Source: a virus (taxonomy: Duplodnaviria; Caudoviricetes). From it: DNA of 64,000 nt. The DNA lies in IMG/VR virus record IMGVR_UViG_3300028533_000484, positions 64,001-128,000 of that record; one strand, 5' to 3'. Position 1 is the stretch's first letter. Each line of letters opens with the position of its first letter. The notes below the pieces were generated by a model. The model saw only the letters and a program-made list of their open reading frames with translations, did not search any database and was not told where the DNA came from. Below, one piece after another: positions 15,101-62,479 of the stretch. The position numbers and the translations under genes are program-made.

Positions 15101-17138
15101 TTAGACTAATTTCATTAGTTTTTTCATCATATAAGAATGGCTCTGGTAATTTTGCATAAACTCTTTTTTCAAAACTTAGATAGAAAGGAATTGTTAATTC
15201 ATTAGGATAATTTCTTCTAGCAACTCTATCTGAGTATCGAACAACTTGAGAAGAATCTATTTTAATTTCCTCAGGAATGTACTCAACAAAATCGATGTTT
15301 GTCGTATTTACAATAGATTTTGCATCAGCTGTTTCGGCATCAAATGTTTCAATTCTACTTGAGTTAATGTAAAACAAACTGTCTGTATTTTTGAAAGTCT
15401 TTACATACGATCCGTACAACTCTACTTTTGTACCAGAACTTTGCAAAGTATCTATGATCGATGAATTAAAGAAACTAGCTTCACCTGTAACATTTGCTTT
15501 CTCAAGTCTTGAATCAAAAATCTGTGCTGTACCAGAAATGTTCAAAACGTGTAAGTTACAATCCTTAATTACAGCTGCATCTGTAATATTAATTGTAGTT
15601 GTTTCATCAAAATCACAATTCTTAAATATTGTTGTTTTGTTTACTTCAATTGTACAGTTCTTGAATGAGATGTTTTCAAAGAATGTTTTCTCATTTATAT
15701 TTAATGTAATACCTGAAAGAATAGTACTTTGCTTTGTTTCACCGGTGATTGTAAAAGCTTTTGTTAGCTCAATATTTTTTGAGTTTTTGTAAAGACCGTT
15801 CCTAATATAAAGGTGACTACCTTCTGAAGCATCAATTGCATCTTGTAAATAGAATCCTTCCTTGTTGTATACAATAAAATCTGCCGATCTGTTACTTACA
15901 GTTGTTTCATCTGCAGCAATAACAAAGTCTACGACTCTAGGACCATAATACTGAGGTGTAATGTGATCTGAATAAGAGTTTAGAGTCGATAGTTTTAAGT
16001 GCGGTGGAAATTTCATCAAGTCAATAAACACTGGCAACTTGATTGTAGCATTCAATGTGGCTCTTGGATAGAATAACTCATAATCCAATGTGTAATTATC
16101 TTTTACGAGTAAAACAGCTGTAATATTTTCTGAATCTGTTACTTTAATATGATATGTACCTGGTGCACCCTTTACAACAAAGAAACCATCGTCAGTATTT
16201 ATTTTTGAAATACTTTCCTTTTCTCCAGGTTCAATGGTAATTTGATGAATACCATTTGCAATACCTTCACTAACAAACTTAACTTCAAGATCTGCAGATT
16301 CACCAACTTTATGAGAAAGTAAACTTACAACTTGTGCATTGCTGTTGTCGTCATAACCTTTTACAGGATCATTTGTTGATGTATCTGTAATATTTGAAAG
16401 AATGTTGTATTGTAAACCAATACCTTGAGTTGTATCCGTACCATTGAATTTGTGCTTTGCAAAGAAACCATTTTCGATAGAGTCTAAAAAGTTAGCAGCA
16501 AGATCTGTAAAATCTTTTACAGGTTCTGAAGCATCAAATACGATATTTTCAATATCAAAAAGTGTAGCGTCTACATAATGTCTTTCACCAACAGGTCCAA
16601 CATATTGGTAAAAAGTTAATTTTGGAGGCTGATTTGCTGAAATACCCTCTGGTACTCCATTATTAAATGTCAATAAACTTGAGTTTGTATCAACTATCCA
16701 ATCGCAACTACCCCAAGCAATCTCTTCTCCATCTTGAGTTTTTAGAACAATGTTGTAAATTCCTGTATCACTGAAATCGTAAGGAATAATGTTTTTTATC
16801 TGATTTCCATCCTCATCTAGAATGGCAAATGCATGATTACAGTTAGAAGAAATCTTAGTAAGTAGTAAATTTGTATGCTTTTTAATTAAAGGTACTTTCT
16901 TGAAAGATGACTCTTGATACTCGATAAGATCGTTTGTTGCATCTAAAGATTTAACATCCTCAAAGAACATATCCTCTGCTTTTCTAGGTATTAAATTACC
17001 ATAAGTTAATACAGAGTTTGTAGAGATATTATCATAAGATCTATAAAGCTCTTCAAAAACTTCTCTCTCAGGATGAGTAGAACCCCAACCTTTAGATTTT
17101 TTCCATAATGAGTTGACTTTGTTTGTACTGGTTAACAT
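12126..17138 (-). CDS. large virion structural protein (tail fibre/baseplate-associated, beta-helix-like segment)
   Basis: 1670 aa; short I/V-x-N/D repeats mid-protein; GKVRIEQLP and AGDW...WEKVD motifs of fibre proteins; ACTAAT motif upstream. Confidence 0.6.
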   Translation of the reverse strand: MLTSTNKVNSLWKKSKGWGSTHPEREVFEELYRSYDNISTNSVLTYGNLIPRKAEDMFFEDVKSLDATNDLIEYQESSFKKVPLIKKHTNLLLTKISSNCNHAFAILDEDGNQIKNIIPYDFSDTGIYNIVLKTQDGEEIAWGSCDWIVDTNSSLLTFNNGVPEGISANQPPKLTFYQYVGPVGERHYVDATLFDIENIVFDASEPVKDFTDLAANFLDSIENGFFAKHKFNGTDTTQGIGLQYNILSNITDTSTNDPVKGYDDNSNAQVVSLLSHKVGESADLEVKFVSEGIANGIHQITIEPGEKESISKINTDDGFFVVKGAPGTYHIKVTDSENITAVLLVKDNYTLDYELFYPRATLNATIKLPVFIDLMKFPPHLKLSTLNSYSDHITPQYYGPRVVDFVIAADETTVSNRSADFIVYNKEGFYLQDAIDASEGSHLYIRNGLYKNSKNIELTKAFTITGETKQSTILSGITLNINEKTFFENISFKNCTIEVNKTTIFKNCDFDETTTINITDAAVIKDCNLHVLNISGTAQIFDSRLEKANVTGEASFFNSSIIDTLQSSGTKVELYGSYVKTFKNTDSLFYINSSRIETFDAETADAKSIVNTTNIDFVEYIPEEIKIDSSQVVRYSDRVARRNYPNELTIPFYLSFEKRVYAKLPEPFLYDEKTNEISLKLDTVYHTIFINDNGELQARFLSSSEISLTRPEAYETQLEAIYNEHADTKLTTTKPTNLEEALIDLYWSKADLKNGKVRIEQLPDSVAYGGLSLVGVWSFEDNEGRYPTFEDVDFSAMSDEIYSELQRGWFFIVKASHKEDDPCYPQTAVDGEVYTAGDWFVCVGKKKELTTETLQARALLNCEAVSKDKNTLLQYSSGNNEIDCTDDRFGHSHKAHTAVWSSCQQYADVTKRFNNLSSLMFFADKVDLYKSEGDFHFVESYPVEYIEGIYASVNPKIDAYKTITQIKIGDCTFNVLGTAVRGDNTDYSNLETQFLTKEDYQNGNTRTVGRLILEAADDATKTWSNETFDAIDGKFALRPTMIGGWYEDEVCSREQPLDKWDEIWSYKTPDGNIEWSTYSVESEIKWEKVDRAYQDPVYSRLPGLATKTGAENPAWSILDSGTGLLRLSYASLAEAVRLINEELFKLSPDRSASIQEISIVVDEEKSTAKKTEYLEVSNGLQLNQLTKLKPSLAWDATIGGKVYFKQQGKHDYLPLEHTFYCGESSSIRVLDKGIEITDRCNVERFDPYEKYRMGFRTPTAMDAAEVTGYIVLGEGAYKIDHEIKYTQYELVKSPFVTDPISALEGETGSAIISERKFYDFKDHSINQCDRETVNLRVLNTLLSEHRTGGYGFVPGNTAVSGTFVITDFTKYGTISPDAKVELQAAFGDIPLAIEITSQYFTLSDSFEETYDLTVSFTLNLPDVGYMKDTLTVKAFAQNFGTESLWTNVLVLKDLLLMKPENLPTIVESAGNVLFPTLGTNIDTQFGADYTVKKYNRVCGFPEIVFDGKGYSWPKEVEYTNTIDTFDNYISVPADMSGLDYDNGTYRFVTFKYEFDKIYDLCGFNLYLDWVDRKPEIKMQDGTLKDVLVQVCVNSAELPSTVLLDGNAPVPVFFEASIQQAEACNYPGKSDESVRRITFGRKPIPVKTIYIRIGLEKNSGLSIKGIDITED

Positions 17139-17168
17139 AACTAAAATTAGTTATGTAGACAAAAAAGA

Positions 17169-48231: not shown

Positions 48232-48274
48232 AAAGTGCTAATTGATTGATCGAACAATTATAGGAATTTAATTA

Positions 48275-48790
48275 ATGAGAATTGACAAACTTGATGAAGA
48301 AAAGTTGAATGAGTTTCGTGATTTTTGCAGATATGGCTATTGTCTTGAAGAAGAAACTGCCAAAGAGTATTTAAATTTTTTGGTAAACGGAATTAAAAGC
48401 ATAACAGATAAGTATAAAACTATTTCAGCAGACACTGCTCATAAAATTAACAATAAAAGATTTAGAAATGAGAGAACTAGGGATGACAGAATTGATAATG
48501 ATTATTTTGAATCTTTTTCTGGCAAAGAAGGAACTTTGAGCGAATTCGAAACAGAGTTTGAATATATGTTCAACCAGTTGAAGATAGAAAAAGATGATAA
48601 AGGTAAAAGAAAAATACCTCAAGAATGGATTACCTGGATTCAATCGACTTTTAATGATTACGTTTGCAGATTTGACAAAAGAGATCCATCTATAAAAGCA
48701 GATTTTGCAGATGAAGTAAACTGGAAAGATAAAGGAAGATTTACCGGATCTCATCTACCTTCATCTGCAAAAAAATTAATCGTTACCTAA
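48275..48790 (+). CDS. module gene A, copy 1 (DFCxYGYCLEEETA family)
   Basis: Paralog of 51426 and 61375. Confidence 0.85.
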   Translation: MRIDKLDEEKLNEFRDFCRYGYCLEEETAKEYLNFLVNGIKSITDKYKTISADTAHKINNKRFRNERTRDDRIDNDYFESFSGKEGTLSEFETEFEYMFNQLKIEKDDKGKRKIPQEWITWIQSTFNDYVCRFDKRDPSIKADFADEVNWKDKGRFTGSHLPSSAKKLIVT

Positions 48791-49273
48791 AAGGTCATCT
48801 ACTGTAGTAGTAGTGTTATATTTTAATAAGGTTTTTAACATTTTTCTAACGTATTCGATTTTTTCTTTATCTGCATCGTTTTCTTTTTCTAGCCAAAGAA
48901 CTTGGTTTGCAAAAGAATAAGTTTCTTTCGTATACTTCGGAGCAAGGTCTGTAAAATCAGCAGGAATTTCAATTGCTTCTTTTGAAACAAAATGGTCGAG
49001 ACTGCCAAAAATCAAAACATAGTTGTTGTGGGTAATTACCTTCAGTTCATCATTCAGTAGTTTTGCTGTTATAAAATCTTCTAGTTTTCCTGTGCTACCA
49101 TCAACATCAAATTCTGCAACAGAGATTTCTTTGTTTTTGATTTTATCAAAAACTTCTGAAACTTTGAATTCACCTTTAAATATATCAAATTCAGTGTCAT
49201 TTCTTTGAAGTTTAAAAGCTTTTCCCAAAACATCTACTGAATATTTTTTATCTAGCCCTTTGAGATCAATCAT
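48776..49273 (-). CDS. module gene B, copy 1 (YNTTT..DL family)
   Basis: Paralog of 51920 and 61883; GGAGG RBS. Confidence 0.85.
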   Translation of the reverse strand: MIDLKGLDKKYSVDVLGKAFKLQRNDTEFDIFKGEFKVSEVFDKIKNKEISVAEFDVDGSTGKLEDFITAKLLNDELKVITHNNYVLIFGSLDHFVSKEAIEIPADFTDLAPKYTKETYSFANQVLWLEKENDADKEKIEYVRKMLKTLLKYNTTTTVDDLLGND

Positions 49274-49384
49274 TCTTGTACCTCCTTACCTATAATAATA
49301 TAGGTACTTTTCAGCAAAATGTTTCAAAATCTCAAAAAAGTGTTTACGGAAGAGGTTTCCAAAACATTTTAACTAATTTTTAAT

Positions 49385-50404
49385 ATGAAAAAACTTAGCA
49401 AAGTTGCCGCAGAGCTTTTAGCTACATATGTAAACCTTATCGATTCAGAGTTTAACGCACATATCTGCGAAAACGGAGAATTTGACAACGAGAGCGTTCA
49501 ATTTTCAGATAGTTATAGAGTTTTCTACGACGGAAAGGACAACAACACAGATAATTACATTACAGTATATTCGTTTAACTCTGAGAAAAAGAGCAGTTGT
49601 GTACTTCTAAACTTTTCTCACGAAGAAACTGAAGGTATTCAAGAGCTTTTAGAATTTGCTTTCAATCAATGTGAATTTGCAGAAAAGTCTAACGAAACAA
49701 TCTGGAGCAATACCGAAACAAACTGGATAGTTGATTTAGATGTAATTATTGAACTTATTGAAGATTTTAAAAATCCTTATGGAATAAATAATCCTGATCT
49801 AGGTGTAAAAGCAGAATATGAAAAGAATAGAGCTTCAAGAAGTTATCCTTTAGATGAGTCCTACTCTACAGACTTAACTGATTTAGAACAAATACAAGAT
49901 GATTGGCTTTACGTTTTAGAAAAAGTTGAGGACTTTGACCCTTTTATCATAATTGCTTTAAAGTCAATTCCTATACATTATGTTGAAGATTTAAGATCTG
50001 ACAACGGTCTTGAAAGAGTAGCTGAGTTTGTTGTTGAATATGGTTTAGAATACAGTCTAAATGTCGGAGGAGTTTATTTTGAACTAAAACGAGAAGTGGC
50101 TATAGGTGCTTTACTTCACGAAATAGCTCATGCTATTTTAGCTTTCAGATATTTGCTTACAGGTAATACTTCCGCTTACAACTTATATGCAAGGACTAAC
50201 GGTGGTCATACAGAAGACTGGTGGAAAATAGCTACAGAGTTAACAAAATATTTTAATGAAAAAATTGAAATTGTAGAAACATTAGATTTAAGAGATGCAA
50301 GTATCTACGAGTATCCAATACAGTATGAAAACTACAATGACGATGCTGTTTGGAGTGAAGAGTATTCCGAACCTGAAGAGATGGATTCAAACTTTAGCTT
50401 TTAG
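49385..50404 (+). CDS. zincin-like (SprT-type) metallopeptidase domain protein
   Basis: LLHEIAH...GHTEDW. Confidence 0.65.
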   Translation: MKKLSKVAAELLATYVNLIDSEFNAHICENGEFDNESVQFSDSYRVFYDGKDNNTDNYITVYSFNSEKKSSCVLLNFSHEETEGIQELLEFAFNQCEFAEKSNETIWSNTETNWIVDLDVIIELIEDFKNPYGINNPDLGVKAEYEKNRASRSYPLDESYSTDLTDLEQIQDDWLYVLEKVEDFDPFIIIALKSIPIHYVEDLRSDNGLERVAEFVVEYGLEYSLNVGGVYFELKREVAIGALLHEIAHAILAFRYLLTGNTSAYNLYARTNGGHTEDWWKIATELTKYFNEKIEIVETLDLRDASIYEYPIQYENYNDDAVWSEEYSEPEEMDSNFSF

Positions 50405-50415
50405 GGAGGATGTAA

Positions 50416-51414
50416 ATGAGAAAATTAAAAGAAGAAGTTTATATAGCAACACCAGAAGCTCCTATAAAATTGTGGATAGTAAATGAAGATGATCCAGACA
50501 TGTCTTGTGGATATATTGAGTCAACCTGTAAATCAGACACGATGCTTTTGCAAACATTTATCCAAAAAGCTGGATACAAAGTAGTTTCTTCAAAGCCAAA
50601 AAATTGTGTTTATGCAAGAGGTATTCCTTTAAGAGTATTTTTAGGTAAAAAAACATATGCAGAGTTTTCAACAGATAAATATAATGAGGCTATTTTAGAG
50701 ACTTTTAAACAAGTTGCAAAGTCTCTTAAGATTGAATTAAAGCAAACTAAACAGCGTGGATTAGCTGTGCAAGAGTGTAAAGGTGAATTCTCGGATACAG
50801 ATTATTGGAAAGAGCATAAAAATAAAACTTTTAAGTTTAAGCAAGGATTAAAAGAAGCAAAAGGAAATAAAAACGACGATAATTTTTCTCATGCTGAACA
50901 TTTAGATTTTGAAACAGTAAAAAGTATGTTTAAACATCCTAAAAAGTTAGCAAAGTATATGTTTGAACATCCTGGGCTTTTAGATGTTGTTCAATCAAAA
51001 GCTTTTAATTACGCAGATGAAATTGGTCAACAACAAGGTTTTGAAGCCTACTATCCTCTCTGGTTGAAGATTACTCAAACAGGTTTTGATACCATTTTTA
51101 ATCTAACAACTTTGGAAGATCCTAATGAAGAAATAGACCTTTATAGAGGAATAGTTCTGTTTGAAGTAGAGCCTAATTTAGAAGAACCTGGTATCTGCTG
51201 GAGTTATGAAGAAGAAGGTGCCTCAGATTGGGTAAACGAGCTTTGTATAGAAGATGATCCGAACGAGGCTCCTTGTATTTTGGTCGGTAAAACTAAAATT
51301 GAAAATGTCGATTGGATTATAACATTTCTACTACTGTGTGCTAGTCCTGAAGAAAAAGAAATTCGAATTTGGGATGATTCTAAAGTGGAAATAACAGATT
51401 GGTATGTAGAATAG
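50416..51414 (+). CDS. protein with C-terminal ART-like domain
   Basis: LYRG...GICWS...EEKEI; MRKLKE start. Confidence 0.55.
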   Translation: MRKLKEEVYIATPEAPIKLWIVNEDDPDMSCGYIESTCKSDTMLLQTFIQKAGYKVVSSKPKNCVYARGIPLRVFLGKKTYAEFSTDKYNEAILETFKQVAKSLKIELKQTKQRGLAVQECKGEFSDTDYWKEHKNKTFKFKQGLKEAKGNKNDDNFSHAEHLDFETVKSMFKHPKKLAKYMFEHPGLLDVVQSKAFNYADEIGQQQGFEAYYPLWLKITQTGFDTIFNLTTLEDPNEEIDLYRGIVLFEVEPNLEEPGICWSYEEEGASDWVNELCIEDDPNEAPCILVGKTKIENVDWIITFLLLCASPEEKEIRIWDDSKVEITDWYVE

Positions 51415-51425
51415 AGGTTGAAAAA

Positions 51426-51923
51426 ATGAGGCTTAGAGAAGATATTTTAAACGAGTTTTATGATTTTTGCAAATATGGATATTGTCTGGAAGAGGAAACT
51501 GCAAAAGATTATTTGAAATTTCTAATTGATGCTTTGTGTCTTATTAGGGATAGTTATGGAGACAAAGCTGTCGAAAGTACCGAAAATCGTTCTAAAGTGA
51601 ATGTTATCAGGTTTCAAAAAGAGCAAAAAGATTTAAAAGGAGATGCAAATGTAGACTACTTTGAAGGAAAAACTTTAGCAGATTTTGAGAAAGATTTTGA
51701 GAGGATGCTTAATCAATTAAAGACTCAACATACTTTAGATGGTAAAAGAAAGATTTCTACCAAATGGATTGAATGGATACAGGATACATACAACAACTAC
51801 GTTGCAAGATTTGAAAAAAGATCTCCTGAGATATCTACAGATTTTCGAAACCAGGTAAGTTGGAAAAATAAAAAAGAAACTTCCAATACAGGTAAATATT
51901 TACCGTCTACAGCTAAAAACTAA
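51426..51923 (+). CDS. module gene A, copy 2 (start moved from 51399)
   Basis: GAGG RBS before ATG 51426. Confidence 0.85.
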   Translation: MRLREDILNEFYDFCKYGYCLEEETAKDYLKFLIDALCLIRDSYGDKAVESTENRSKVNVIRFQKEQKDLKGDANVDYFEGKTLADFEKDFERMLNQLKTQHTLDGKRKISTKWIEWIQDTYNNYVARFEKRSPEISTDFRNQVSWKNKKETSNTGKYLPSTAKN

Positions 51924-52414
51924 TCTCCTAGAAGATCTTCTATGCGAGTAGTTGTATTATACATAAGCATATTTTTTAAGTCTTTTCTCATACTTAAAAC
52001 AAATTCTTTTTCTTCTGGATCTTCTGATTCTGGTAATAGCCAAAAAACCCTGTTTATGCTTTCTACATGAGCATCAACGGAATCGTTTGCTTTTGTAAAA
52101 TCTTCAGGAACTACAATTGGTTGTTTTGTAATAAGATTTTCCAGATGAGTAAACATTAATGTATATGTACTACTGCCAATAATCTTAGCTTCTTTGTTTA
52201 ACTGTCTAATGTAAACGTAATCCTGAAGCGTAGCAAAAGATGGATCGATGCTAAAAGCTTTTACGACTTTTCTGCTTTTTACAAGTTCAAAAGCTTCTGA
52301 AACCTTTAATTCATCTGAAAATGTTATCAAAGAGTCTGTTCTGTGCAAGTAACAGAAAAGACCTGACTTCACATCCACTGTATATAACTTGTCCAATTTC
52401 TCGAAATCAAGCAT
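51920..52414 (-). CDS. module gene B, copy 2
   Basis: AGGAGG RBS; paralogy. Confidence 0.85.
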   Translation of the reverse strand: MLDFEKLDKLYTVDVKSGLFCYLHRTDSLITFSDELKVSEAFELVKSRKVVKAFSIDPSFATLQDYVYIRQLNKEAKIIGSSTYTLMFTHLENLITKQPIVVPEDFTKANDSVDAHVESINRVFWLLPESEDPEEKEFVLSMRKDLKNMLMYNTTTRIEDLLGD

Positions 52415-52497
52415 TCTTGTACCTCCTGAACACTAATAATATAGTTTTTTCCAGAATGCATCCTTCAAGAAGTTTTCACGAATTTCGAGGAAATCTA

Positions 52498-54396
52498 TTA
52501 CGTGATATTGATATGGAATTCTCTTCCTCTTAAAAAGTTTTTCCTTTCATCTGTATCAAAACCAAACCAATTTTGAATTGACTTTTTATAATTTTTATCA
52601 GCATCGTAAGGCATTAGAAGTTTCTCCATTCCACCTTCTTTATCTAAAACTTGATTAAGTCTAACCTTAGTCCAAGAACCTAAACCTTTTAAGTAAAAAT
52701 AATCTAAATTCTTTTTCATATCTTTTTTGTCTGGAAAGTTAAAATAGTACTCTTCTACTTTTTCTCCTTTAAGACCAATTAATAATGGAGTATTTAATCT
52801 ACAGACTCTTCCGTTTTCAATCATTTTTGGAGCAAGTTTTGCAAACATTGTAAGTACCAAACCTGCAATTGCTGTACCATCGGGGTCCGCGTCGGATAAA
52901 ACAACAACATAGTCGTAAGTCATATCTTCTGTTTTACCATATAGATCTAAGCCTAGAATATTTACAAGCTCTTTGATTTCTTGGTTTTCCATAAAACCTT
53001 TTACTTTACCTTTTCTTACAGGACCTACATCTTGAATGTTCATCGGTTTACCTTGCAACATGTAGTACCCAATTCCTTTACGACCTAGAATAGGACTAAT
53101 ACCAGAGAAAGCAGATCTACCTTCAGTAATCATTAGATACTTTTGACCTGATTTTGCTACAGGTGCAAAATATTTCTCACTTACGACTTCTTTCTTTACT
53201 TTGTTGAGAGCATCTGTTGCTTTACGAGCTGCCAATTCCTCTTTTAATTTAAAAAGCTCTGTAATATTTTCAATAATCGGTTTTGTACGAAGAATTTTAT
53301 CTGTAAAAGTATCCAGATCAACATTATTTGCTCTTAAGAATTCTGTAATTTCTCCTTGAGAATTTGTAATTTTTTCTTTTGTCTGGGAATTAAATTTACA
53401 GTTTGTAAAATCTTTCAGAAAAACAACTATACCAATACGATTGCGAATGTCTGCAGGTTTGATTGCTTTGTATTTTTTAGATACTTTCTCACGAATATCA
53501 TTTATAACTTTTGCTGAGATGTAATCAACATGTGTACCACCTTCGCGAAGTGAAATACCGTTTACATAACTCAGTACATAGGGTTCATCACTAGGATATA
53601 CACAAATATAGCAATTAGGCTCGTTGAGTACTACGGCTGGTTGAGGAAACATTGAAGCAAGATCTTTTGCTTTTACTCCGACCTTTTCTCCATTAAAAGT
53701 AATTGTACATTTAGGAAAGAACCAGGAAAGGAATTTCAAACGAGTCTTAATAAGAGATATAATGTTTTCATCAAACTCTTTTACACCAAATCTAGCAAAA
53801 TCTGGAGTAAATGTTATTGTTGTTCCTTTTTTTGGTGATGCAGTTAAAAGTTTAAAGTCCATTTTAGATCTATTATCTTCGCAATTGATCTTCATCTTTG
53901 CATTACCATCGCAAGTAATACATTCAAACTTTTTAGAGAAAATGTTCGCGCCCTTACATCCGATACCGTTGGTCCCGATAGTCTTTCTGTTTGCATCATC
54001 TTCAAAGTTGGAACCTGACATTGGTCTACAGACAGCATCTACACACATCCAGTTTCCTTCATCATCTTGAACAACTGGAATACCTCGACCATTGTCTTCG
54101 CAAGAAAATGTATCTTTTGTAATAGTAACTTTAATTTTATTTGAAAAAGCCCAATCTGTTTTTACACCTTCGTCAATTGAGTTGTCGACAACCTCGTTAC
54201 AGATTTTCAATAAACCTTCTGTAAAGTTAACTTCTTTGTAAGAGATCTGTCCATCTTCCTCTAAGATCCAAGAGTTAATATTAGCAGGAGAAACTCCACC
54301 TATGTACATTGAAGGCCGTCTAAGTACATGTTCAATAGTAGATAAATGTTTAATTATTTGATTGCTTTCTAATTTTTTTGTTTTATTATCTTTCAT
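52498..54396 (-). CDS. type IIA DNA topoisomerase ATPase/TOPRIM subunit (T4 gp39+60-like)
   Basis: RRPSMYIG, EVVDNSIDE, DNGRGIP, GTNGIG, TEGRSA, DADPDG, YLKGLGS. Confidence 0.95.
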   Translation of the reverse strand: MKDNKTKKLESNQIIKHLSTIEHVLRRPSMYIGGVSPANINSWILEEDGQISYKEVNFTEGLLKICNEVVDNSIDEGVKTDWAFSNKIKVTITKDTFSCEDNGRGIPVVQDDEGNWMCVDAVCRPMSGSNFEDDANRKTIGTNGIGCKGANIFSKKFECITCDGNAKMKINCEDNRSKMDFKLLTASPKKGTTITFTPDFARFGVKEFDENIISLIKTRLKFLSWFFPKCTITFNGEKVGVKAKDLASMFPQPAVVLNEPNCYICVYPSDEPYVLSYVNGISLREGGTHVDYISAKVINDIREKVSKKYKAIKPADIRNRIGIVVFLKDFTNCKFNSQTKEKITNSQGEITEFLRANNVDLDTFTDKILRTKPIIENITELFKLKEELAARKATDALNKVKKEVVSEKYFAPVAKSGQKYLMITEGRSAFSGISPILGRKGIGYYMLQGKPMNIQDVGPVRKGKVKGFMENQEIKELVNILGLDLYGKTEDMTYDYVVVLSDADPDGTAIAGLVLTMFAKLAPKMIENGRVCRLNTPLLIGLKGEKVEEYYFNFPDKKDMKKNLDYFYLKGLGSWTKVRLNQVLDKEGGMEKLLMPYDADKNYKKSIQNWFGFDTDERKNFLRGREFHINIT

Positions 54397-54447
54397 AGTT
54401 TTATTATTATAGTTCCTTTTGATTCTTTCTCTTCTCTAATTGAAAGG

Positions 54448-54476
54448 AAAAGGTGCTCATTTCAGAGCACCTTTTT
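54448..54476 (-). terminator. intrinsic terminator
   Basis: AAAAGGTGCTC...GAGCACCTTTT. Confidence 0.75.
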
Positions 54477-54497
54477 ACTTTTTAGAATTTTATCGAC

Positions 54498-55271
54498 TTA
54501 ATCCCGGTCGTAACTCTCGTCGTCATCCCAGTCATCATCCTCGTAATAGTACCTAACACTGTCGAGATATCTTTTTACATCTTTTCCGAAGTATATTCCA
54601 AATAGACCTTTACCATCTTCGGTATAGTCAGCTTGAGTAGAAATAAAATACTCGTTCTTGGAAATTTCAAGAATTGTAGGACTACCATAAGGACCGTCAT
54701 TTTCAAACGATGCTAAACAAGTGTAACCTTCGCTTTCAACGTTTTCAGGCATGACTCCAAAAATGTCTTCTGATGGTTCTTCGTTGAGAATTGCAGCATG
54801 TGCATCCCAGTCAGAATTACCTCTTTCAGCAATAGCAATATAAAGATATTTACCAGCATATTTAGACTCTGCAGGAAGTTTAACAAAAGCATATTCATCT
54901 TCAGACTGAAGTTCATCCATTAGATCAACAAAATGTTCTGTCGGATTTTCAGATTCAGAAATCCTCTTTGCAGATGTCTTTGTAGAGCATCTTAAAACTC
55001 CAAGTCCCAAACCTTTTAAGTATACATTGTACATTCTCTGAAAATTTGCTTCAAAGTTTGGATTTGAGGAAATATCTGCAATTAATTTGTCTGTATACTC
55101 AGTTGCTTCTGTATTTAATCCAGCAGTTTCACAAGCCATAAGAGTATCGATCAAATCAGCGTTTGTCTTACAAGCATTTAACATATCTATATGTGCAACT
55201 AAAGCTTTCTCCAATGTACCGTTCCATTTAGAAATATCTCTACCTGTACCAGTAGTTTTAAATTTTGACAT
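54498..55271 (-). CDS. hypothetical late protein between the two topoisomerase II genes
   Basis: ACTAAA plus AGGAG upstream, own terminator. Confidence 0.75.
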   Translation of the reverse strand: MSKFKTTGTGRDISKWNGTLEKALVAHIDMLNACKTNADLIDTLMACETAGLNTEATEYTDKLIADISSNPNFEANFQRMYNVYLKGLGLGVLRCSTKTSAKRISESENPTEHFVDLMDELQSEDEYAFVKLPAESKYAGKYLYIAIAERGNSDWDAHAAILNEEPSEDIFGVMPENVESEGYTCLASFENDGPYGSPTILEISKNEYFISTQADYTEDGKGLFGIYFGKDVKRYLDSVRYYYEDDDWDDDESYDRD

Positions 55272-55328
55272 GGTTTTAATCTCCTATATTGTAATATTTA
55301 GTTGTTTTTTATTCGAGCTACCGATAAG

Positions 55329-56696
55329 TTAAAGATCCGTAGATTTTTTTGCAACAGTTTTTATAAAGCCTTCTTTTTTAAGTTCTGTTTCAAGTTCGTT
55401 CAAGTCTTTTGTCCAAGCACTTTCTGGAGTTTCCTGTTCCATTGCTTCACGTTCTTTTGTCTTGTCTTTCCACTTCTTTTCAATTTCTTTTGCTTTATCT
55501 ATTGTAATGGAATATAAAGGCATCGAAAGAAGTTTATCTACAATTGTGTAACCTTTTTGTTTAAGATCTGCTTCTGCAACTGCTTTTTTCTTATCTTTTA
55601 AAACTATTGTACCTTTAATAACTTCCTGAATAAATCTGTAGACTTCGTTTAATTCACTCTCTTCTTTTTTCAATCTTGCAATTTCAGATTTAATACGTAA
55701 CTTAAGATATTTAATCTTAATTTTGTAGTAATCATTAAAGACGGATCTTACTTCGTTATATTCACGAACTGTATTATTTTCATCCATACAAGTTACAGTT
55801 TCTGTCATTCTTTGAATCAAGCCAAGATCTTTCCAGATTTGATCTTCTGATTTTACCAATTCTGTATCCGAAAGCCAAATTTCGAATTTAAAAACATCAT
55901 CTTCACTAAAATCGTTGAATTTTAGTACAAGGCCATCCTCTTTAAGACTGCGAAGCTTTTTCAAATAGCCACTTAAATCCCAAGTTATTGGAAGTTCGTC
56001 AATATAAAGTTTCTTACCTTCAAGTCTAGCAATACCCTTAACAATCCAAGAGCCATCAACATTGTCAATTGTGCCTTTAAAACCTTCCCAATGTGGTTTT
56101 AGCCAATCGGATTTAATGTTCTTTCCTGCAATTGCTGCTCTTGTAAGCTTGAAAATATTTTCAAGAGAGCGAGGATAAATATCTGAAGAAAATCCTACAC
56201 CAATTCCTTCTGTACCATTGAGTAATATTAATGGTAAAGTCGGTACATAAAACATTGGTTCAATTTGCTTACCTTCGAACTCTTGATAAATAAGATTTGG
56301 ATCATCTTCTTTTCTAAAAAGTAAATTAAAATAATCTGCCGGTCTTGCAAAAATATAACGAGGTGCAGAAGCTGTTGGTGAGAACCTAGTACCAAAAGAT
56401 CCAACTCCTTCTAAAGGTGGTAAATTGTTTGCACCACAATATTTTGCAGACATTGTTACAATTGTACTTTGAGCACCAGATTCACCATGTAAGTATTCTG
56501 CTTCATCTACAAGTTTGGAACTGTAAGCTGTAACTTTAATTGGGTTTTTAATTCCACATTTTTTCGTAGTATAGACTACCTTTCTTGCAGTCATCTTCAA
56601 CCCGTCAATGTAAGATGCTGTTGCTCTATACAAAATGTATAGAGCAGCGTCATTGTACTGTGTATTTAAAAATTCTGTAATATCCATCTTTTTCAA
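55329..56696 (-). CDS. type IIA DNA topoisomerase breakage-reunion subunit (T4 gp52-like)
   Basis: IDGLK..RK, YLHGE, GSFGTR, SAPRY, LLNGTEGIGVGF. Confidence 0.95.
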   Translation of the reverse strand: MKKMDITEFLNTQYNDAALYILYRATASYIDGLKMTARKVVYTTKKCGIKNPIKVTAYSSKLVDEAEYLHGESGAQSTIVTMSAKYCGANNLPPLEGVGSFGTRFSPTASAPRYIFARPADYFNLLFRKEDDPNLIYQEFEGKQIEPMFYVPTLPLILLNGTEGIGVGFSSDIYPRSLENIFKLTRAAIAGKNIKSDWLKPHWEGFKGTIDNVDGSWIVKGIARLEGKKLYIDELPITWDLSGYLKKLRSLKEDGLVLKFNDFSEDDVFKFEIWLSDTELVKSEDQIWKDLGLIQRMTETVTCMDENNTVREYNEVRSVFNDYYKIKIKYLKLRIKSEIARLKKEESELNEVYRFIQEVIKGTIVLKDKKKAVAEADLKQKGYTIVDKLLSMPLYSITIDKAKEIEKKWKDKTKEREAMEQETPESAWTKDLNELETELKKEGFIKTVAKKSTDL

Positions 56697-56860
56697 CCTT
56701 TAGAAGAATTATAGTTAAATAGCCAAAGCAATAAGCACAAAAGCTGCAAAACCAAACAAAAATAAAAGAAGTTCAGAGCTTAAGTCCTTAATAGTTTTAA
56801 ATATCTTTTTCCATGCTTTCATTTAAGTCCTCCACACTGTTGAAATCGAACGAAGATTGT

Positions 56861-57820
56861 TTAAGATTTTCTATTTAACGAAAACTTTTTTGTTGCTTTC
56901 GATTTGCTTGCAAAGTTGATGTCTAAATCGACTCTAAACTTGTTTATATCTATATCTGAATCTCGAGGAAGCATACTTTCGATTACTCTAAGATTTGCAT
57001 CTGTTAGATCTAACAATTTTTCATAGGATCTACAAGTGTTGGAAAGTTTTAATAGTTCAGTAAGTCTTTGAAATTTTCCAGAACCTCTGAAGAATTCAAT
57101 TTTAGCTTCAGATAAAGTCAATTCACCTTCACCAATATCTTTAAGAATTTCCATCATTACATCGCTAGCAGTCCTAATAACCTTGGTGCTAGGATCTTTG
57201 AACGAGCCTACAATGTTATCTGAAACATCTCCATAAAGAGCTTTCCAAAGAGTTACAGATGCAATGTTTGGTTTAAATCCATGTTTCTTTTCAAAATCTG
57301 TTGCTGTGTAAATGCTTTCTTGTTTTAAAGTAAAACCTTTAGTAAGCATTTCGACTCTTCCTGCCTCGAGATACCTTGACCAGTCTTCATCAGATGACAA
57401 TAATAAACATTTTCCAGTTTCTGTAAGTTTTTCTACAAAATCATCGGCTTCAAACTGTACATCGTGATAAACAGAAATTCTAGGTCTTTTTGTAACAATA
57501 AATTCTGAATAAAGTTTTTCAAGAGTATCTAATCTCAATTGAGCTGTAGGACTATTTTTATCTCTTACAGTTTTATAACCTTCTTTAATTTTAAGTCTTG
57601 CACTCATCTGTCCATTTGATAACATTGGATCAAACAATAAACAGACTTCACCAAGAGTTTGATCTTGAAGTTTGTCCAATACAGATTTGTAGTGATTGAA
57701 AACTGTATTATTTTTACTCAACTGATTTACGGTTTCCTGAGTAAGATCCTTCAGATAAAGACTAGCTACTCTATAGAATATGTTACTTACATCTACAATT
57801 ATTTTGTCATATATTAGCAT
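56861..57820 (-). CDS. 5'-3' exonuclease / T4 RNase H-like flap nuclease
   Basis: IVDVSN, GYK..R, FEADD, SSDEDW, GDVSDNI. Confidence 0.85.
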   Translation of the reverse strand: MLIYDKIIVDVSNIFYRVASLYLKDLTQETVNQLSKNNTVFNHYKSVLDKLQDQTLGEVCLLFDPMLSNGQMSARLKIKEGYKTVRDKNSPTAQLRLDTLEKLYSEFIVTKRPRISVYHDVQFEADDFVEKLTETGKCLLLSSDEDWSRYLEAGRVEMLTKGFTLKQESIYTATDFEKKHGFKPNIASVTLWKALYGDVSDNIVGSFKDPSTKVIRTASDVMMEILKDIGEGELTLSEAKIEFFRGSGKFQRLTELLKLSNTCRSYEKLLDLTDANLRVIESMLPRDSDIDINKFRVDLDINFASKSKATKKFSLNRKS

Positions 57821-57880
57821 TAAGAATCCTCCAATTTAGAGATGAAAAAAAGCATCTCTAAATTGAAATTAGTTCCAAGT

Positions 57881-58549
57881 CTAGAGATCTGTGTTGTTGA
57901 TATCTTTAGCATAATCAGCAACTAGGTTAACTGCACTATCGATAAATTCATTGTAAGTTAAAATATCCTGAACTGTGTCGTCGATATCTTTTCCACTAAT
58001 ACCACGTTTGTAGATGTTAGCAACTTTCATATAACCAGTTTTAGGTGCAAAATTAAGCTCTTCAGCCTTAGCTGAATGTTCTTCTTTGATTTCTTCGTTA
58101 TAAGATTCGATTGTAGCTTTAAAGGCTTTTACAGCTTTTAATTCTTCCTCAATATCGCACATATTCGTATCAAAATGTGTGAATTTATCAGAATCGATTT
58201 GAATATTGATACCAATGCTTTCAAGAGCTTCAAGGTAATCTCCAAGAATTTCTTCTGTTCGGTTAAATGCCTCTGTAGCTCTAATCAAAGTAACAAGTTT
58301 GATAAAGGCTGCTGAAATAATATCTTTATGTTTTTCTTCAGGATTCAATTCTAATGGATTTCCTGAAATCCAGGCTTTACCTTTACTAGCATAAGCTTTT
58401 GCTAAAGTGCTCCAATCGTTTTTATTACCTGAAGTTTCTGTAAGTACTCTTTTATTTACTTCTGCAAGAGCTTTTCCAGCTACTTTCCTTTCTTTAAAAA
58501 TTTTAAGCGTTTCGTTAAGAAGCTCTTTTGCATCTTTTACATCTTCCAT
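57881..58549 (-). CDS. putative dsDNA-binding protein (T4 DsbA/GapR-like)
   Basis: Helical IESYNEEIKE...AEELNF...KVANIYK pattern; adjacent to RNase H gene as in T4. Confidence 0.45.
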   Translation of the reverse strand: MEDVKDAKELLNETLKIFKERKVAGKALAEVNKRVLTETSGNKNDWSTLAKAYASKGKAWISGNPLELNPEEKHKDIISAAFIKLVTLIRATEAFNRTEEILGDYLEALESIGINIQIDSDKFTHFDTNMCDIEEELKAVKAFKATIESYNEEIKEEHSAKAEELNFAPKTGYMKVANIYKRGISGKDIDDTVQDILTYNEFIDSAVNLVADYAKDINNTDL

Positions 58550-58559
58550 GATCTACTCC

Positions 58560-59126
58560 TTATTTATTTTCTCCGTTGAGAGTACCTTTACCTTGATACT
58601 GACCATCGTATGCTTCAGCTTCTTCTTTGGTTTCAAATACAACCATTTGACCGACTCTAGCACCAAAATAGATTTTCATTTTGTGATTGACTGTAAGAAA
58701 TGTTCCCATTTCATCTGTGTAAAAACCTGGATCCCAAATTGGTGAGTTGATTTCATTTCCACAACGTCTTACAGAACTTCTATGAACAATTTTACCTACA
58801 GTTTTTGTATCGAATTTGCAACCTTCTGCAAACCCAATCTCATATTGACCTGGTTCCAAAATCCAACAGTCACCTTCATTATCAGTTGTCAATCTTACAT
58901 CTTCAGTTGCTGGTAATTTTGTTTTCTTTGTTTTTCCTGTTTCATCATCCTTTTGATAATCCGCATAAACAGTACCGAAAGTTTCGGATTTAATTTTTGA
59001 ACAAGATACCATGTGCAAATCAATACCTGCTTGAGCTGGCTCAAGATCTGATATTTTGTACTTTTCTTTTGCTCCATCTGAGAGATATATGATACCTCTA
59101 TCAATAATTTGTTTAGCTGTTAACAT
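58560..59126 (-). CDS. dcd: dCTP deaminase / trimeric dUTPase family
   Basis: PAQAGIDL, RSS.RRCG, WDPGF, RVGQ, YDGQYQ. Confidence 0.8.
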   Translation of the reverse strand: MLTAKQIIDRGIIYLSDGAKEKYKISDLEPAQAGIDLHMVSCSKIKSETFGTVYADYQKDDETGKTKKTKLPATEDVRLTTDNEGDCWILEPGQYEIGFAEGCKFDTKTVGKIVHRSSVRRCGNEINSPIWDPGFYTDEMGTFLTVNHKMKIYFGARVGQMVVFETKEEAEAYDGQYQGKGTLNGENK

Positions 59127-59736
59127 TATATACTCCTTTTTTGTATATTATAGGTTTTTTTGTTAATTCCATATAACAATCGTGACACAAGCATTTGTAG
59201 TTCTGACCTGTATCTATTCGTTTGTTCATTTTCCAAGTTCCAATATATGCATAATAATTTGCTGAATTGCCACATTCCATACAAATTGCATTTTCTTTTT
59301 CAATTTTATCCATAAAAGGAATTATTTCTCGAGCAGCATTGAGTACAACTGCATCTGCTCCTGAAATTAATCCTGAAAAGATTAAAGGAATATCCTTCAA
59401 TGGAGAATTGTGATAGTCGTAGAAGAACTGTCTCTTAAAGTCCAACATGTGATATTCATCAATAAAAATAGCTTCAATTTTGGCTTTCATAAGAGTCTTA
59501 CCTGTAAGCTTGATTATATCGTCCACATGTTCAATTTTAAAGTAATGTACATACTCAGTAATTTTTAATTCTTCAAGTCTCTGAGCAATGTAGTTTCCAT
59601 GACTTCCACCTCTCGTATCGCAAGCAGGTTCTAACAAAACGACATGTCTTTTAGCTATTACATATTTTTCTAATTCGATTACAAAACGTCTTGTTTTACC
59701 TGAAAACATTGGACCTGTAAAAAGTTTTGTTTGCAT
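59113..59736 (-). CDS. tdk: thymidine kinase-like, second paralog
   Basis: GPMFSGKT, IDE, CMEC...CHDC. Confidence 0.82.
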   Translation of the reverse strand: MQTKLFTGPMFSGKTRRFVIELEKYVIAKRHVVLLEPACDTRGGSHGNYIAQRLEELKITEYVHYFKIEHVDDIIKLTGKTLMKAKIEAIFIDEYHMLDFKRQFFYDYHNSPLKDIPLIFSGLISGADAVVLNAAREIIPFMDKIEKENAICMECGNSANYYAYIGTWKMNKRIDTGQNYKCLCHDCYMELTKKPIIYKKGVYNVNS

Positions 59737-59739
59737 TAT

Positions 59740-60813
59740 CTATACCTCCTTCTTTTCATCTGAATCATATCTATAATCCCAAGAATCACCGACATCATTC
59801 CTGCTTTCGCCAATTTTTGTTACATTTGATAAACTTTGATAAAATTTGTTTGCTTTTTCATTAATCTTATAACAATTGAAATAGAATGGGTTTGACAACT
59901 GTTCTAAAAGTCTTTTAGCAACACCTTGACAACGATGTTCAGAATCTACAATAAGATTTGTCATTAGATACTTGTCATCTTTATATCTACATTCAACCAT
60001 ACCTACCATTTTACTATCTACAAAAGCCATTGTTACGTTTCCATCTTCTATAGAACTTGGCATATATTCTGTAGGAAATGGAATTTCTGAAGAACTATAA
60101 GTGTTCATAAAGTTGATAATATTCTCAATATCATTTGCATTACTTCTTCTGAACTGTAACTTTAACTCTCCATAGTAAATTCTAAAACTTGGGTAAGCTT
60201 CTTTGTAAGCTAGAAGATTTTTATCTCCTCCACATTCACCCCAATTTGCAAATTTAGCACCAACATTTTTAAAGTATTCTAAGAATTTTACTGTAGCTAC
60301 ATTTGCTATGTGAGTATAATCTGTTTTTGTACTAGCTGTCGTACAGCCATAAGCCCACTCATCTTTAGCTACATACATTTGATAAGAAAGCAATTTACCT
60401 TCTTGATTAAAGAGACCTAGAACTCCACCTTTGTTAAGTAATTTTTCAAAAGCTACATCTAGACAATGTTTATATCTAGAACTATGCTCTTTGTAGTGGT
60501 TTGGATTCAATTCATCAGCTACAAGCTTGTTTGTATTCCACTCGTTGTATAGATTGTATACCTTATCTATATCTTCCTCTGTTTCGATTTCTTTTACAAA
60601 AAGCTTATTTTCTTCTGCGTATTCGAGATATTGTCTAACACGCTTTTTAAACTTTTTACCATTATCGTAACAATTTTTATCGAAAACCTTTTCCAAGTCG
60701 TAACAAACATCAAAAGTTCTTCTACCTTTTTCAAGATCTGGATTTTCAGAAAGTCCATAAGCTAGTTGTACATCTCGTACATTTGGAAAAGCGTATTGTT
60801 GAATATTAGTCAT
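59740..60813 (-). CDS. two-domain GNAT-fold protein (DUF2156/MprF-C-like plus acetyltransferase)
   Basis: GKKFKKR..., ANWGECGG..NL..YK...P; C-terminal V..EHRCQGVAK...N..A..FY. Confidence 0.6.
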   Translation of the reverse strand: MTNIQQYAFPNVRDVQLAYGLSENPDLEKGRRTFDVCYDLEKVFDKNCYDNGKKFKKRVRQYLEYAEENKLFVKEIETEEDIDKVYNLYNEWNTNKLVADELNPNHYKEHSSRYKHCLDVAFEKLLNKGGVLGLFNQEGKLLSYQMYVAKDEWAYGCTTASTKTDYTHIANVATVKFLEYFKNVGAKFANWGECGGDKNLLAYKEAYPSFRIYYGELKLQFRRSNANDIENIINFMNTYSSSEIPFPTEYMPSSIEDGNVTMAFVDSKMVGMVECRYKDDKYLMTNLIVDSEHRCQGVAKRLLEQLSNPFYFNCYKINEKANKFYQSLSNVTKIGESRNDVGDSWDYRYDSDEKKEV

Positions 60814-61327
60814 CTATATCCTCAATTTTAATTTGTTCAGGTTTATTTGTAAAATGATCAAACATATCATATCGATAGTACTTTTCTGCAAAAGTATTGA
60901 ACTTATCGTAAATCTTATCCATATTTTCCATATAAGCCTCATCTCTACTTTTAGCCAGACTGTTAAAGTGTAACATGTACTTTCCTTTATTTTTTGGTAA
61001 ACAGATAATCGCTTTATCTACAGTATTAAAAAGTTTTTCAGCAAGTTCATCTGAAATGTGAGCTTTATCCGGCTCATAAACTTCTGTATAGATAATGTTT
61101 GAAACCCAAGCTCTATCAATTACAACATCGTAATTAAGACTTCGCCAATAGTTTAAGTCTTTTAGAAGTCTTTCATAACCTTCATCTACAGTTACATTCT
61201 TATCCTGACTTGTATTTGTACAATGAATAAACATGCAAGATCTTTTTGCTTCCATAGATGCATTTACAAGATTTCTTGCAATTGTTGTTTTTCCTGTTCC
61301 ATCAGGTCCTTCTAACAAATAAATCAA
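60806..61327 (-). CDS. nucleotide monophosphate kinase (thymidylate kinase-like)
   Basis: EGPDGTGKTT, IDRAWVS..IY. Confidence 0.8.
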   Translation of the reverse strand: MIYLLEGPDGTGKTTIARNLVNASMEAKRSCMFIHCTNTSQDKNVTVDEGYERLLKDLNYWRSLNYDVVIDRAWVSNIIYTEVYEPDKAHISDELAEKLFNTVDKAIICLPKNKGKYMLHFNSLAKSRDEAYMENMDKIYDKFNTFAEKYYRYDMFDHFTNKPEQIKIEDIDD

Positions 61328-61374
61328 TTTACACCTCTTAATTAAAAAACTAATTAAATTATAGAAACAAAATT

Positions 61375-61893
61375 ATGAAAGTTGCAGAATTGGAAAAGAA
61401 AAAATATAAAAGACTTTTGGAAGAATTAAGAGATTTTTGCAAATATGGATATTGTCTGGAAGAGGAAACTGCCAGAACCTATATGTTGTTTTTAGTGGAT
61501 GCCTTGGTAAAAATAGAAAAATCTAGAGGTAAAAAAGCAGCTGCTAATGTAGAAAATCATTTTAAAGTAAATAACAATAGATTTGCAGGTGAAAGAGACA
61601 GATTAGAAAACAGAGCAGAAGATGATTACTTTGAAGGTAAATCCTTAGGGGAATTTGAAAAAGAATTTGAGAAGATATTTAATCAACTTAAAATTCAGCA
61701 TACTTTGGATGGTAAAAGGAAAATCTCTACAGAATGGATATGTTGGATACAGGATACCTTTAATAATTATGTTGCCAGGTTTGAAAAAAGAAATCCTAAA
61801 ACGAATACGGATTTCAGAAATCAAGTAGGATGGAAGGATAAGAAACAAACTTCTAATTCTGGAAAGTATTTACCTTCTGAGGTTAGGAAATAA
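61375..61893 (+). CDS. module gene A, copy 3
   Basis: ACTAAT upstream; paralogy. Confidence 0.85.
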   Translation: MKVAELEKKKYKRLLEELRDFCKYGYCLEEETARTYMLFLVDALVKIEKSRGKKAAANVENHFKVNNNRFAGERDRLENRAEDDYFEGKSLGEFEKEFEKIFNQLKIQHTLDGKRKISTEWICWIQDTFNNYVARFEKRNPKTNTDFRNQVGWKDKKQTSNSGKYLPSEVRK

Positions 61894-62377
61894 GATCCTC
61901 CACCTTTGTTGTGGTATTGTATTTAAGCATATCTCTTAGACGTTTGCGCATACTTTCAACAAATCTTTTTTCCTTTGGGTCGTCAGATTCCGGTGCAAGC
62001 CAGAAAACTCTATTTATACTTTCAACAGTGGAATCTACATATTCAGGATCTACTTTTGTAAAATCTTCAGGAATGATAATTGGCTGTTTTGTAATCAGAT
62101 TTTCCAAATGAGTAAACATCATCACAAATGTATCACCACCAACAATTTTAGCTTCCTCATTTAACTGTCTAATATAAACGTAATCCTGGAGGTTGGAAAA
62201 GGAAGAACTTATAGAGAAGGCCTTTACAATTTTTCTATTTTTTACAAGTTCAAAGGCCTCAGAAACTTTCAATTCATCACTAAAGTTCACCAAGGAATCT
62301 TTTCTGTGTAAATAGCAAAAAAGACCTGACTCTACATCCACTGTGTAAAGATCATCCAATTCCTTAAAATTAATCAT
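61883..62377 (-). CDS. module gene B, copy 3
   Basis: AGGAGG RBS; GAAA-N18-CTATAAT upstream. Confidence 0.85.
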   Translation of the reverse strand: MINFKELDDLYTVDVESGLFCYLHRKDSLVNFSDELKVSEAFELVKNRKIVKAFSISSSFSNLQDYVYIRQLNEEAKIVGGDTFVMMFTHLENLITKQPIIIPEDFTKVDPEYVDSTVESINRVFWLAPESDDPKEKRFVESMRKRLRDMLKYNTTTKVEDLIS

Positions 62378-62479
62378 ACATTGGCCTCCTTAAAGTAATT
62401 ACTCTTTCAACTACAATAATATTATAGGTTTACGATCTGAAATGTTTTCAAAAACTTTCTACAAGAAACTAAATAGTAT

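Follow-up and report, generated by a model that had tools for sequence, protein, structure and literature searches.

The relations of Spackle to the tail lysozyme gp5, and of Imm, in phage T4 exemplify a logic in which a phage shuts out superinfecting relatives by making, early on, a protein that neutralises one brought in by their virions; the gp5, Spackle and Imm genes are neither adjacent nor duplicated. T4 also encodes the internal proteins IPI-III and Alt, whose capsid-targeting sequences are cut at LxE. Among T5-like phages, pb5 and Llp co-vary. In phage T5, Llp is adjacent to and downstream of pb5 and acts early (PMC9586334). This pair unites a late receptor-binding protein (pb5) and an early superinfection-exclusion lipoprotein (Llp), which bind the same receptor and not each other, and it resembles the locus described here in that a late gene adjoins a small early gene, in the present case putatively, with specificities that would be cognate. 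The locus in question is a cassette of two convergent genes, here called A and B, present in three paralogous copies in a window of 64,000 nucleotides (bases 64001-128000 of the 140,446-bp IMG/VR viral contig IMGVR_UViG_3300028533_000484). The cassette is securely recognised as a mobile, self-contained, two-promoter, two-protein unit, whose genes belong to unknown families and are kept together. Tentatively, and with somewhat less than an even chance, A and B are read as a mobile cognate late/early pair acting at opposite ends of the infection cycle.

The contig is only 35% complete according to CheckV and therefore the phage genome must be very large. The large subunit of its topoisomerase II shares around 33% identity with the counterparts of T4-like and other large myoviruses. 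The carriers of A and B homologues are only uncultured T4-related jumbo phages forming a clade from gut and rumen, and their hosts are probably rumen or gut Treponema, with Treponema saccharophilum as a candidate.

Three Convergent Cassettes of Two Types

Each of the three cassettes, of about 1.1 kb (48237-49330, 51426-52470 and 61348-62455), consists of a gene A on the plus strand (165-172 aa) that converges on a gene B on the minus strand (164-165 aa). The window copies 1, 2 and 3 are referred to as W1, W2 and W3, copy 1 representing type I and copies 2 and 3 type II. For comparison, 21 related loci (L007-L027) were fetched, and every reading frame in them was scanned with A and B profiles. 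The six genes, with the ratio of nonsynonymous to synonymous substitution rates (dN/dS) where it is given, are the following:

48275-48790, plus strand: gene A copy 1 (type I), 171 aa; open reading frame (ORF) and profile match; dN/dS 0.26 against the L009 orthologue
48776-49273, minus strand: gene B copy 1 (type I), 165 aa, acidic, isoelectric point (pI) 4.9; dN/dS 0.20 against L009
51426-51923, plus strand: gene A copy 2 (type II), 165 aa; alternative TTG start at 51399
51920-52414, minus strand: gene B copy 2 (type II), 164 aa; ORF and profile match
61375-61893, plus strand: gene A copy 3 (type II), 172 aa; ORF and profile match; model with a predicted local distance difference test score (pLDDT) of 73
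61883-62377, minus strand: gene B copy 3 (type II), 164 aa; ORF and profile match; model pLDDT 86

These ORFs, together with 3' overlaps of 15, 4 and 11 bp in copies 1, 2 and 3, stand where the initial annotation, drawn from the DNA letters alone, had placed them, and the motifs that it quoted for A and B are invariant columns of the alignments. In a profile search of the whole contig each gene is matched exactly three times, at E-values between 1e-82 and 1e-96, far beyond chance. Copies 2 and 3 are each other's closest relatives in both genes, as had been proposed: A is 63% identical between them and 52-53% identical between copy 1 and either of them, the corresponding values for B being 74% and 38-42%. 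The 3' overlap, one of the details in the initial annotation, was dropped as a special feature, since overlapping 3' ends are widespread in this compact genome and occur at 11 of the 29 convergent junctions of the contig.

Opposite Promoter Classes and Predicted Antisense Transcription

A genome-wide motif test revealed two motifs enriched upstream of genes across the contig. The early-class motif has two parts and is sigma-70-like (TTTTnGAAA-N17-20-(A)CCTATAWT), and a consensus AGGAGG site comes after it. Some 18-25 genes have it upstream, among them all three B genes and those encoding topoisomerase IB and dCTP deaminase. The late-class motif, AACTAAWT, often lies just 13 nt 5' of the ATG in genes devoid of a Shine-Dalgarno site, and is found upstream of a baseplate-wedge-like gene, a weakly portal-like gene and a 1670-aa gene. 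The signals around the cassettes are as follows:

49281..49330, minus strand: early-type promoter and ribosome-binding site (RBS) of B1; TTTTGAAA, a 16-nt spacer and ACCTATATT; AAGGAGG
52422..52470, minus strand: early-type promoter and RBS of B2; CTTGAAGG ... AACTATATT; CAGGAGG
62385..62455, minus strand: early-type promoter and RBS of B3; TTTTTGAAAA ... ACCTATAAT; AGGAGG
48237..48244, plus strand: degenerate late-type motif 5' of A1; GCTAATTG; one mismatch to the AACTAAWT class
61348..61355, plus strand: late-type motif of A3; AACTAATT, 26 nt upstream of A3

The early promoter motif and strong RBS that the initial annotation assigned to every B are thus present in all three copies. Its late-type signal before A holds for A3 (AACTAATT at -26), is reduced in A1 to a one-mismatch variant (GCTAATT, at -38) and does not hold for A2. 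Of the 15 loci tabulated, 13 have CCTATAWT and AGGAGG 5' of the gene in the B position; in L014 and L019 the -10 box is a one-base variant. The partner gene of L021, which is not recognisable as B, likewise has the early-class motif and an RBS. AACTAAWT stands before most A genes, those of W3, L007, L009, L011, L012, L017 and L025. The opposite promoter classes of A and B are conserved in nearly all lineages.

Across the contig, the gene set marked by TTTTnGAAA-N17-20-ACCTATAWT and AGGAGG is different from the AACTAAWT set. In many genes lacking a Shine-Dalgarno site, AACTAAWT is located 13-16 nt 5' of the ATG (for example, window 49372-49387, 64162-64177 and 12126-17151), which suggests that the late mRNAs of these genes may be leaderless or near-leaderless.

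No intrinsic terminator was found between A and B, so the two transcripts should run antisense through each other. At the junction of the first copy there is one further element:

48703..48772, no strand assigned: perfect 14-bp hairpin within the A1 3' end, immediately past the stop codon of B1; z = -3.3

Its stem is kept perfect in L009 and L014-16 through two compensatory double substitutions that also change amino acids; neither L012 nor the type II copies have a hairpin of this kind. The A1 hairpin may serve as a 3' stabiliser or terminator for the B transcript. These elements bear on the alternative that the mutual antisense interference of early and late units is itself the point of the arrangement, a timing switch acting at the RNA level, and that the two proteins have separate roles. 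The missing terminator, the compensatory changes of the hairpin in the W1/L009 lineage and the conserved opposition of promoter classes are all in line with such a switch. Nevertheless, the hairpin is limited to one sub-lineage, the same overlap geometry is frequent elsewhere in the genome, and both proteins are strongly constrained along their full length, and a switch of this kind is regarded as quite improbable.

Pairing of A and B Across Relatives

A word-based search of 5.8 billion proteins retrieved 42 A clusters and 16-19 B clusters, all from metagenome assemblies except for three entries from Treponema or from NCBI records of metagenome-assembled genomes (MAGs). A hidden Markov model (HMM) of the A profile, run against 1.84 billion representatives, matched 33 proteins, two of them longer than A itself: P0059, which joins an HD_4 domain to A, and P0085, a 733-aa protein with A at its C-terminus. 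Among 185,579 species genomes the single match was a 3.8-kb contig of a Treponema MAG. One of the MAG entries, P0090 (294 aa, on a 27,962-bp contig of an NCBI MAG), combines the first ~140 residues of a type II B with the C-terminal part of ribosomal protein S5 and is most likely an assembly chimera of phage and bacterium.

A convergent B is found in 16 of the 16 loci that have a full-length, high-scoring A and an available downstream flank, which represent about nine non-redundant lineages. The pairing extends to L017 and L019, with A scores of no more than 88-200 bits, B identities of 30-36% and hhalign probabilities of 99.8% and 99.7%. In the same convergent overlapping position, the most distant loci (L021/L022, and L026 in its second pair) have a gene comparable in size. 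Independent occurrence of A and B, which according to the initial annotation would speak against a cognate pair, was largely not seen. The most distant partners are only marginally B-like. As a separate observation, L021:2209-2634 (plus strand) holds a 141-aa ORF whose similarity to B is weak and split (E 2e-5), and which is unpaired and 3.4 kb from the distant A-like gene. The genes flanking the cassette differ across at least seven contexts, which include these:

L007: GTP cyclohydrolase I
L008: NAD-dependent ligase
L009 and L014-16: topoisomerase IB
W3 and L011: a nucleoside monophosphate kinase-like gene and a beta-CASP nuclease gene
L012: unrelated small genes
L021: NAD-salvage genes

Pfam did not bear out ADP-ribosyltransferase assignments for genes neighbouring the cassette. 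Wherever both genes can be recognised in a lineage, A and B lie side by side in convergent orientation. This adjacency has outlasted the reshuffling of neighbours, which argues for selection on co-inheritance and not for mere proximity.

Exchange, Fusion and Decay of the Cassette

The comparison with L011, which is syntenic with the window across site 3, reveals how cassettes move. In L011 the flanks of this site, together with the first codons of A, resemble W3 (81-91% identity) and not W2 (42-45%), whereas the A-B core is W2-like (85-98%, against 55-86% to W3). W3-type flanks around a W2-type core indicate that whole A-B cores have been exchanged between sites. The exchange junctions fall within the conserved 5' portion of A and at the 5' end of B, and none lies between the genes. 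Together with the convergent B at every testable close full-length A, this bears out the earlier proposal that A and B are inherited as one unit.

It could be argued that A and B are accessory genes with no functional relation, such as a pair of anti-defence or host-takeover factors needed at different times, that are linked by their overlap and by travelling together. The frequency of convergent 3' overlaps in the contig favours this explanation; furthermore, strand follows timing, as in T4-like phages, and the co-divergence of A and B is explained by linkage alone. On the other hand, despite reshuffled neighbours the two genes keep their adjacency, orientation and promoter classes even at about 30% identity, and recombination breakpoints lie outside the pair and never between the genes. 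Such hitch-hiking is considered somewhat unlikely.

Presence of the cassette at a given site is variable. L011 has none next to the topoisomerase II large subunit gene, the site of copy 2 in the window, and the neighbouring gene differs too; likewise, G000 has none beside its own topoisomerase IB gene, where L009 has one. A clean empty site was not found in the related genomes. The L009 cassette is bracketed by an exact 15-nt direct repeat, GGAGTAATTCCATAA (L009:9938-9952 and L009:11111-11125), that takes in the upstream 125-aa gene's stop codon; the other sites showed no repeat of this kind. In a 306-kb relative (L017:6001-7146), A is fused in frame to an upstream HD_4 hydrolase gene and the convergent B is retained. 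The window itself has a stand-alone HD_4 gene (3208-3849, minus strand; a RelA/SpoT-type HD hydrolase) that carries a late-type motif and is the orthologue of this part of the fusion, with 66% identity. The fusion looks like the result of a cassette landing directly behind a late gene. This behaviour recalls morons and the free-standing cassettes of T4-like phages (seg and mob genes), which are also self-contained units between conserved genes, with variable location and recombination at conserved edges. Unlike seg and mob cassettes, the A/B unit has no detected endonuclease domain and comprises two genes on opposite strands.

Decay has been recorded as well. In L027, A is truncated to 123 aa, has lost its N-terminal motif and lies beside an unrelated ORF, while B is intact; were B to protect against A, losses would be expected in this order. 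In L026 a 60-aa N-terminal remnant of A is followed by an unnamed ORF. At both loci (L026:3986-4820 and L027:305-1570) an ORF with the motif HNPP(Y/H)AH(V/I)RW...CSRF, for which no Pfam match was found, stands in place of the missing 5' or 3' portion of A, and could be a mobile gene with its target near codons 55-65 of A.

These observations are pertinent to the possibility of a selfish poison-antidote element akin to toxin-antitoxin systems, in which A would be a stable toxin, B its antidote, and the cassette would spread because its loss is costly. The many contexts and variable copy number, the exact repeat around the L009 cassette, the truncated A with intact B in L027 and the decayed A remnants of L026 fit with this idea. 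Type II toxin-antitoxin and polymorphic effector-immunity systems resemble the cassette in consisting of two small co-inherited proteins, with several diverged copies and occasional orphan protectors (as in L027). In contrast, those systems are co-directional operons with a single promoter, and A and B are convergent and have separate promoters of opposite temporal class, which is not the layout of an autoregulated operon. No RelE, MazF or VapC fold, no helix-turn-helix or ribbon-helix-helix fold of antitoxin type and no immunity fold was matched in Pfam, NCBIfam, PADLOC, Foldseek or VIA-align, a result that does not exclude membership; no DNA-binding antitoxin domain was matched either. Type I systems with convergent antisense partners, such as txpA/RatA, pair a small hydrophobic peptide with an antisense RNA, whereas both partners here are soluble proteins of about 165 aa, with a grand average of hydropathy (GRAVY) of -0.2 to -1.1. 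Moreover, in a mixed lytic infection a diffusible antidote would also shield genomes that lack the cassette, so the logic of a drive is weak. Taken together, a poison-antidote element is judged improbable.

Constraint and Predicted Folds of A and B

With unsaturated synonymous sites, dN/dS for A and B is 0.26 and 0.20 between W1 and L009, 0.27 and 0.14 between W2 and L011, and 0.12 and 0.08 between W3 and L007. Both are real proteins under purifying selection, constrained over their whole length. In the invariant A motif DFCxYGYCLEEETA, the wobble positions vary among lineages. Constraint therefore acts on the protein, and the possibility that this segment is a DNA or RNA element was dropped.

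A is highly charged, with a pI of 5.9 to 9.3, and has many conserved basic and aromatic residues (GKRK, WIxWIQ, NNYVxRF). In its model an N-terminal helix is followed by a loop with the invariant motif, then by a four-helix bundle at residues 33-137, and the C-terminal tail is extended; the loop is poorly modelled, the motif having pLDDT values below 50. The model of B predicts an alpha/beta N-terminal domain followed by a helical C-terminal domain. Read directly, the N-termini of B (MIDLKGLDKKYSVD and similar) have no hydrophobic leader, signal peptide or lipobox.

Neither protein gave a significant match in the family libraries Pfam, PHROGs, NCBIfam and PADLOC, and against PDB sequence profiles the best E-values were 0.12 and 1.2. 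Foldseek returned nothing significant for either model against PDB or, for the B model only, against BFVD. In VIA-align wide searches the maximum Z was 3.2 for B and 6.1 for A, the latter on generic helical repeats. The ESM Atlas yielded nothing for A or B, pattern scans of IMG/VR gave no significant match, and no GenBank phage was matched by tblastn or megablast. A and B are families and folds that resemble nothing known, in agreement with their initial description as an undescribed pair.

Two particular assignments were considered and rejected. B as a PD-(D/E)xK nuclease was suggested by a 13-bit Cas4 match of B1, not significant and unsupported by the model, and by a D...ExK-like pattern; the residues of this pattern fall within a predicted helix, and none of the folds matched was that of a nuclease. 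A sigma-like identity of A, suggested by the resemblance of WIxWIQ to sigma region 2.3, received no backing from sequence or fold searches. More broadly, A could be an enzyme acting in mobility or on nucleic acids, for instance a homing nuclease or recombinase of a new kind, or else a late transcription factor, with B as its early inhibitor, in the manner of free-standing homing cassettes or sigma/anti-sigma pairs. The mobile-looking distribution and the conserved basic and aromatic residues of A would suit this proposal, but no nuclease, recombinase, sigma or helix-turn-helix signature appears in its sequence or model, and no GIY-YIG, HNH, LAGLIDADG or PD-(D/E)xK nuclease domain was detected in A or B by sequence or fold. 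Three diverged copies with presence/absence variation are also unlike a core transcription factor. An enzyme or regulator of this sort is very improbable, and the least probable of the explanations considered.

A Proposed Cognate Late/Early Pair and Its Relation to Known Systems

Under the preferred reading of A and B as a cognate late/early pair, the layout would work as follows. A late-class promoter would drive A, which ends against an opposite-strand B that has a strong early-class promoter and a consensus Shine-Dalgarno site. B would be made in quantity directly after infection, and would neutralise A, either incoming or carried over, or occupy the host target of A. A would be made late, alongside the structural genes. 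Late transcription of A antisense through B, and early transcription of B antisense through A, might sharpen this temporal separation. By analogy with T5 pb5/Llp and T4 gp5/Spackle, the logic would be that of a late component with an early cognate blocker, and the three diverged types in one genome could provide three specificities. The acidity of B (pI 4.9) is in keeping with many phage-encoded inhibitor proteins and is counted in favour of this reading. So are the purifying selection on both genes, the pairing at 16 of 16 loci amid differing flanks, the exchange of whole cores, the conserved opposite promoter classes, the missing terminator and the truncated A beside an intact B in L027.

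Several points weigh against it. The labels early and late are inferences from the class of the promoter motif and the genes that it precedes. A2 lacks a promoter motif of its own, its start lying 11 nt past the stop of the gene 50416-51414. The distant partners in L021 and L026 have marginal likeness to B, with E-values of 0.13 and 0.007, and a mutual E-value of 7e-5. A and B co-diverge with r = 0.95, as linkage of overlapping genes alone predicts. The HD fusion in L017 may be an insertion accident, or A may be a regulatory or carrier domain rather than an effector. The LxE tags that the initial annotation saw on A are at chance frequency (3-4 observed, ~2 expected from composition; 68th-83rd percentile of genes) and were dropped as evidence of packaging. 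An HMM of the conserved A motif finds only the three A copies in the 140-kb contig and no other ORF.

A more specific proposal is that the cassette is a new kind of phage conflict module, in which a late effector A, carried in the virion or long-lived, and a type-specific early neutraliser B mediate kin-specific superinfection exclusion or phage-phage competition, the specificity types being shuffled between sites as whole cassettes and both proteins having new folds. In this complete form it is unlikely.

Comparison with the described systems places the pair in none of the known families considered. B has neither the signal peptide nor the lipobox of a lipoprotein such as T5 Llp. A is a 170-aa helical protein, whereas pb5 is a receptor-binding protein of ~640 aa, and there is no sequence or fold similarity between them; the predicted structure of A, a small helical bundle without tail-fibre-like features, is likewise unlike a receptor-binding protein of T5 type. 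T4 gp5, Spackle and Imm show no similarity to A or B, and a virion location of A is hypothetical. With the T4 internal proteins A shares its status as a small, putatively late protein, its position in hyperplastic regions of a T4-related genome and a conserved L-x-E in the invariant motif. In contrast to them, the motif of A is common to no other ORF of the contig and LxE is not enriched, so that no shared targeting sequence was found in the 35% of the genome available. The T4-type S77 prohead protease (PF03420) was not found in this 35% fragment, its control likewise being without a match anywhere; a ClpP-like protease is encoded in it.

The jumbo phages of gut and rumen anaerobes are almost wholly uncharacterised, and the A-B unit offers a compact, multi-copy and testable handle on them, with putatively opposite temporal control. 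If A and B prove to be an effector and its neutraliser, or two binders of one host target, they would constitute a new family among the few phage exclusion and competition systems, and would add two new protein folds and an example of diversification by whole-cassette swapping. If they are functionally unrelated, the cassette still illustrates how late genes are planted within the early regions of T4-like genomes.

Other Features of the Window and Its Relatives

Three further genes were noted in the window and its relatives:

54498-55271, minus strand: 257-aa orphan gene with a AACTAAAT motif, between two topoisomerase II subunit genes
7614-9329, plus strand: eukaryotic-type topoisomerase IB (Pfam Topoisom_I, Topoisom_I_N and Topo_C_assoc)
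L009:3890-4741: flagellin gene (Flagellin_N and Flagellin_C), encoded in relatives

In L011 the topoisomerase II subunit genes are 6 nt apart, which makes the 257-aa orphan gene another insertion/deletion polymorphism.

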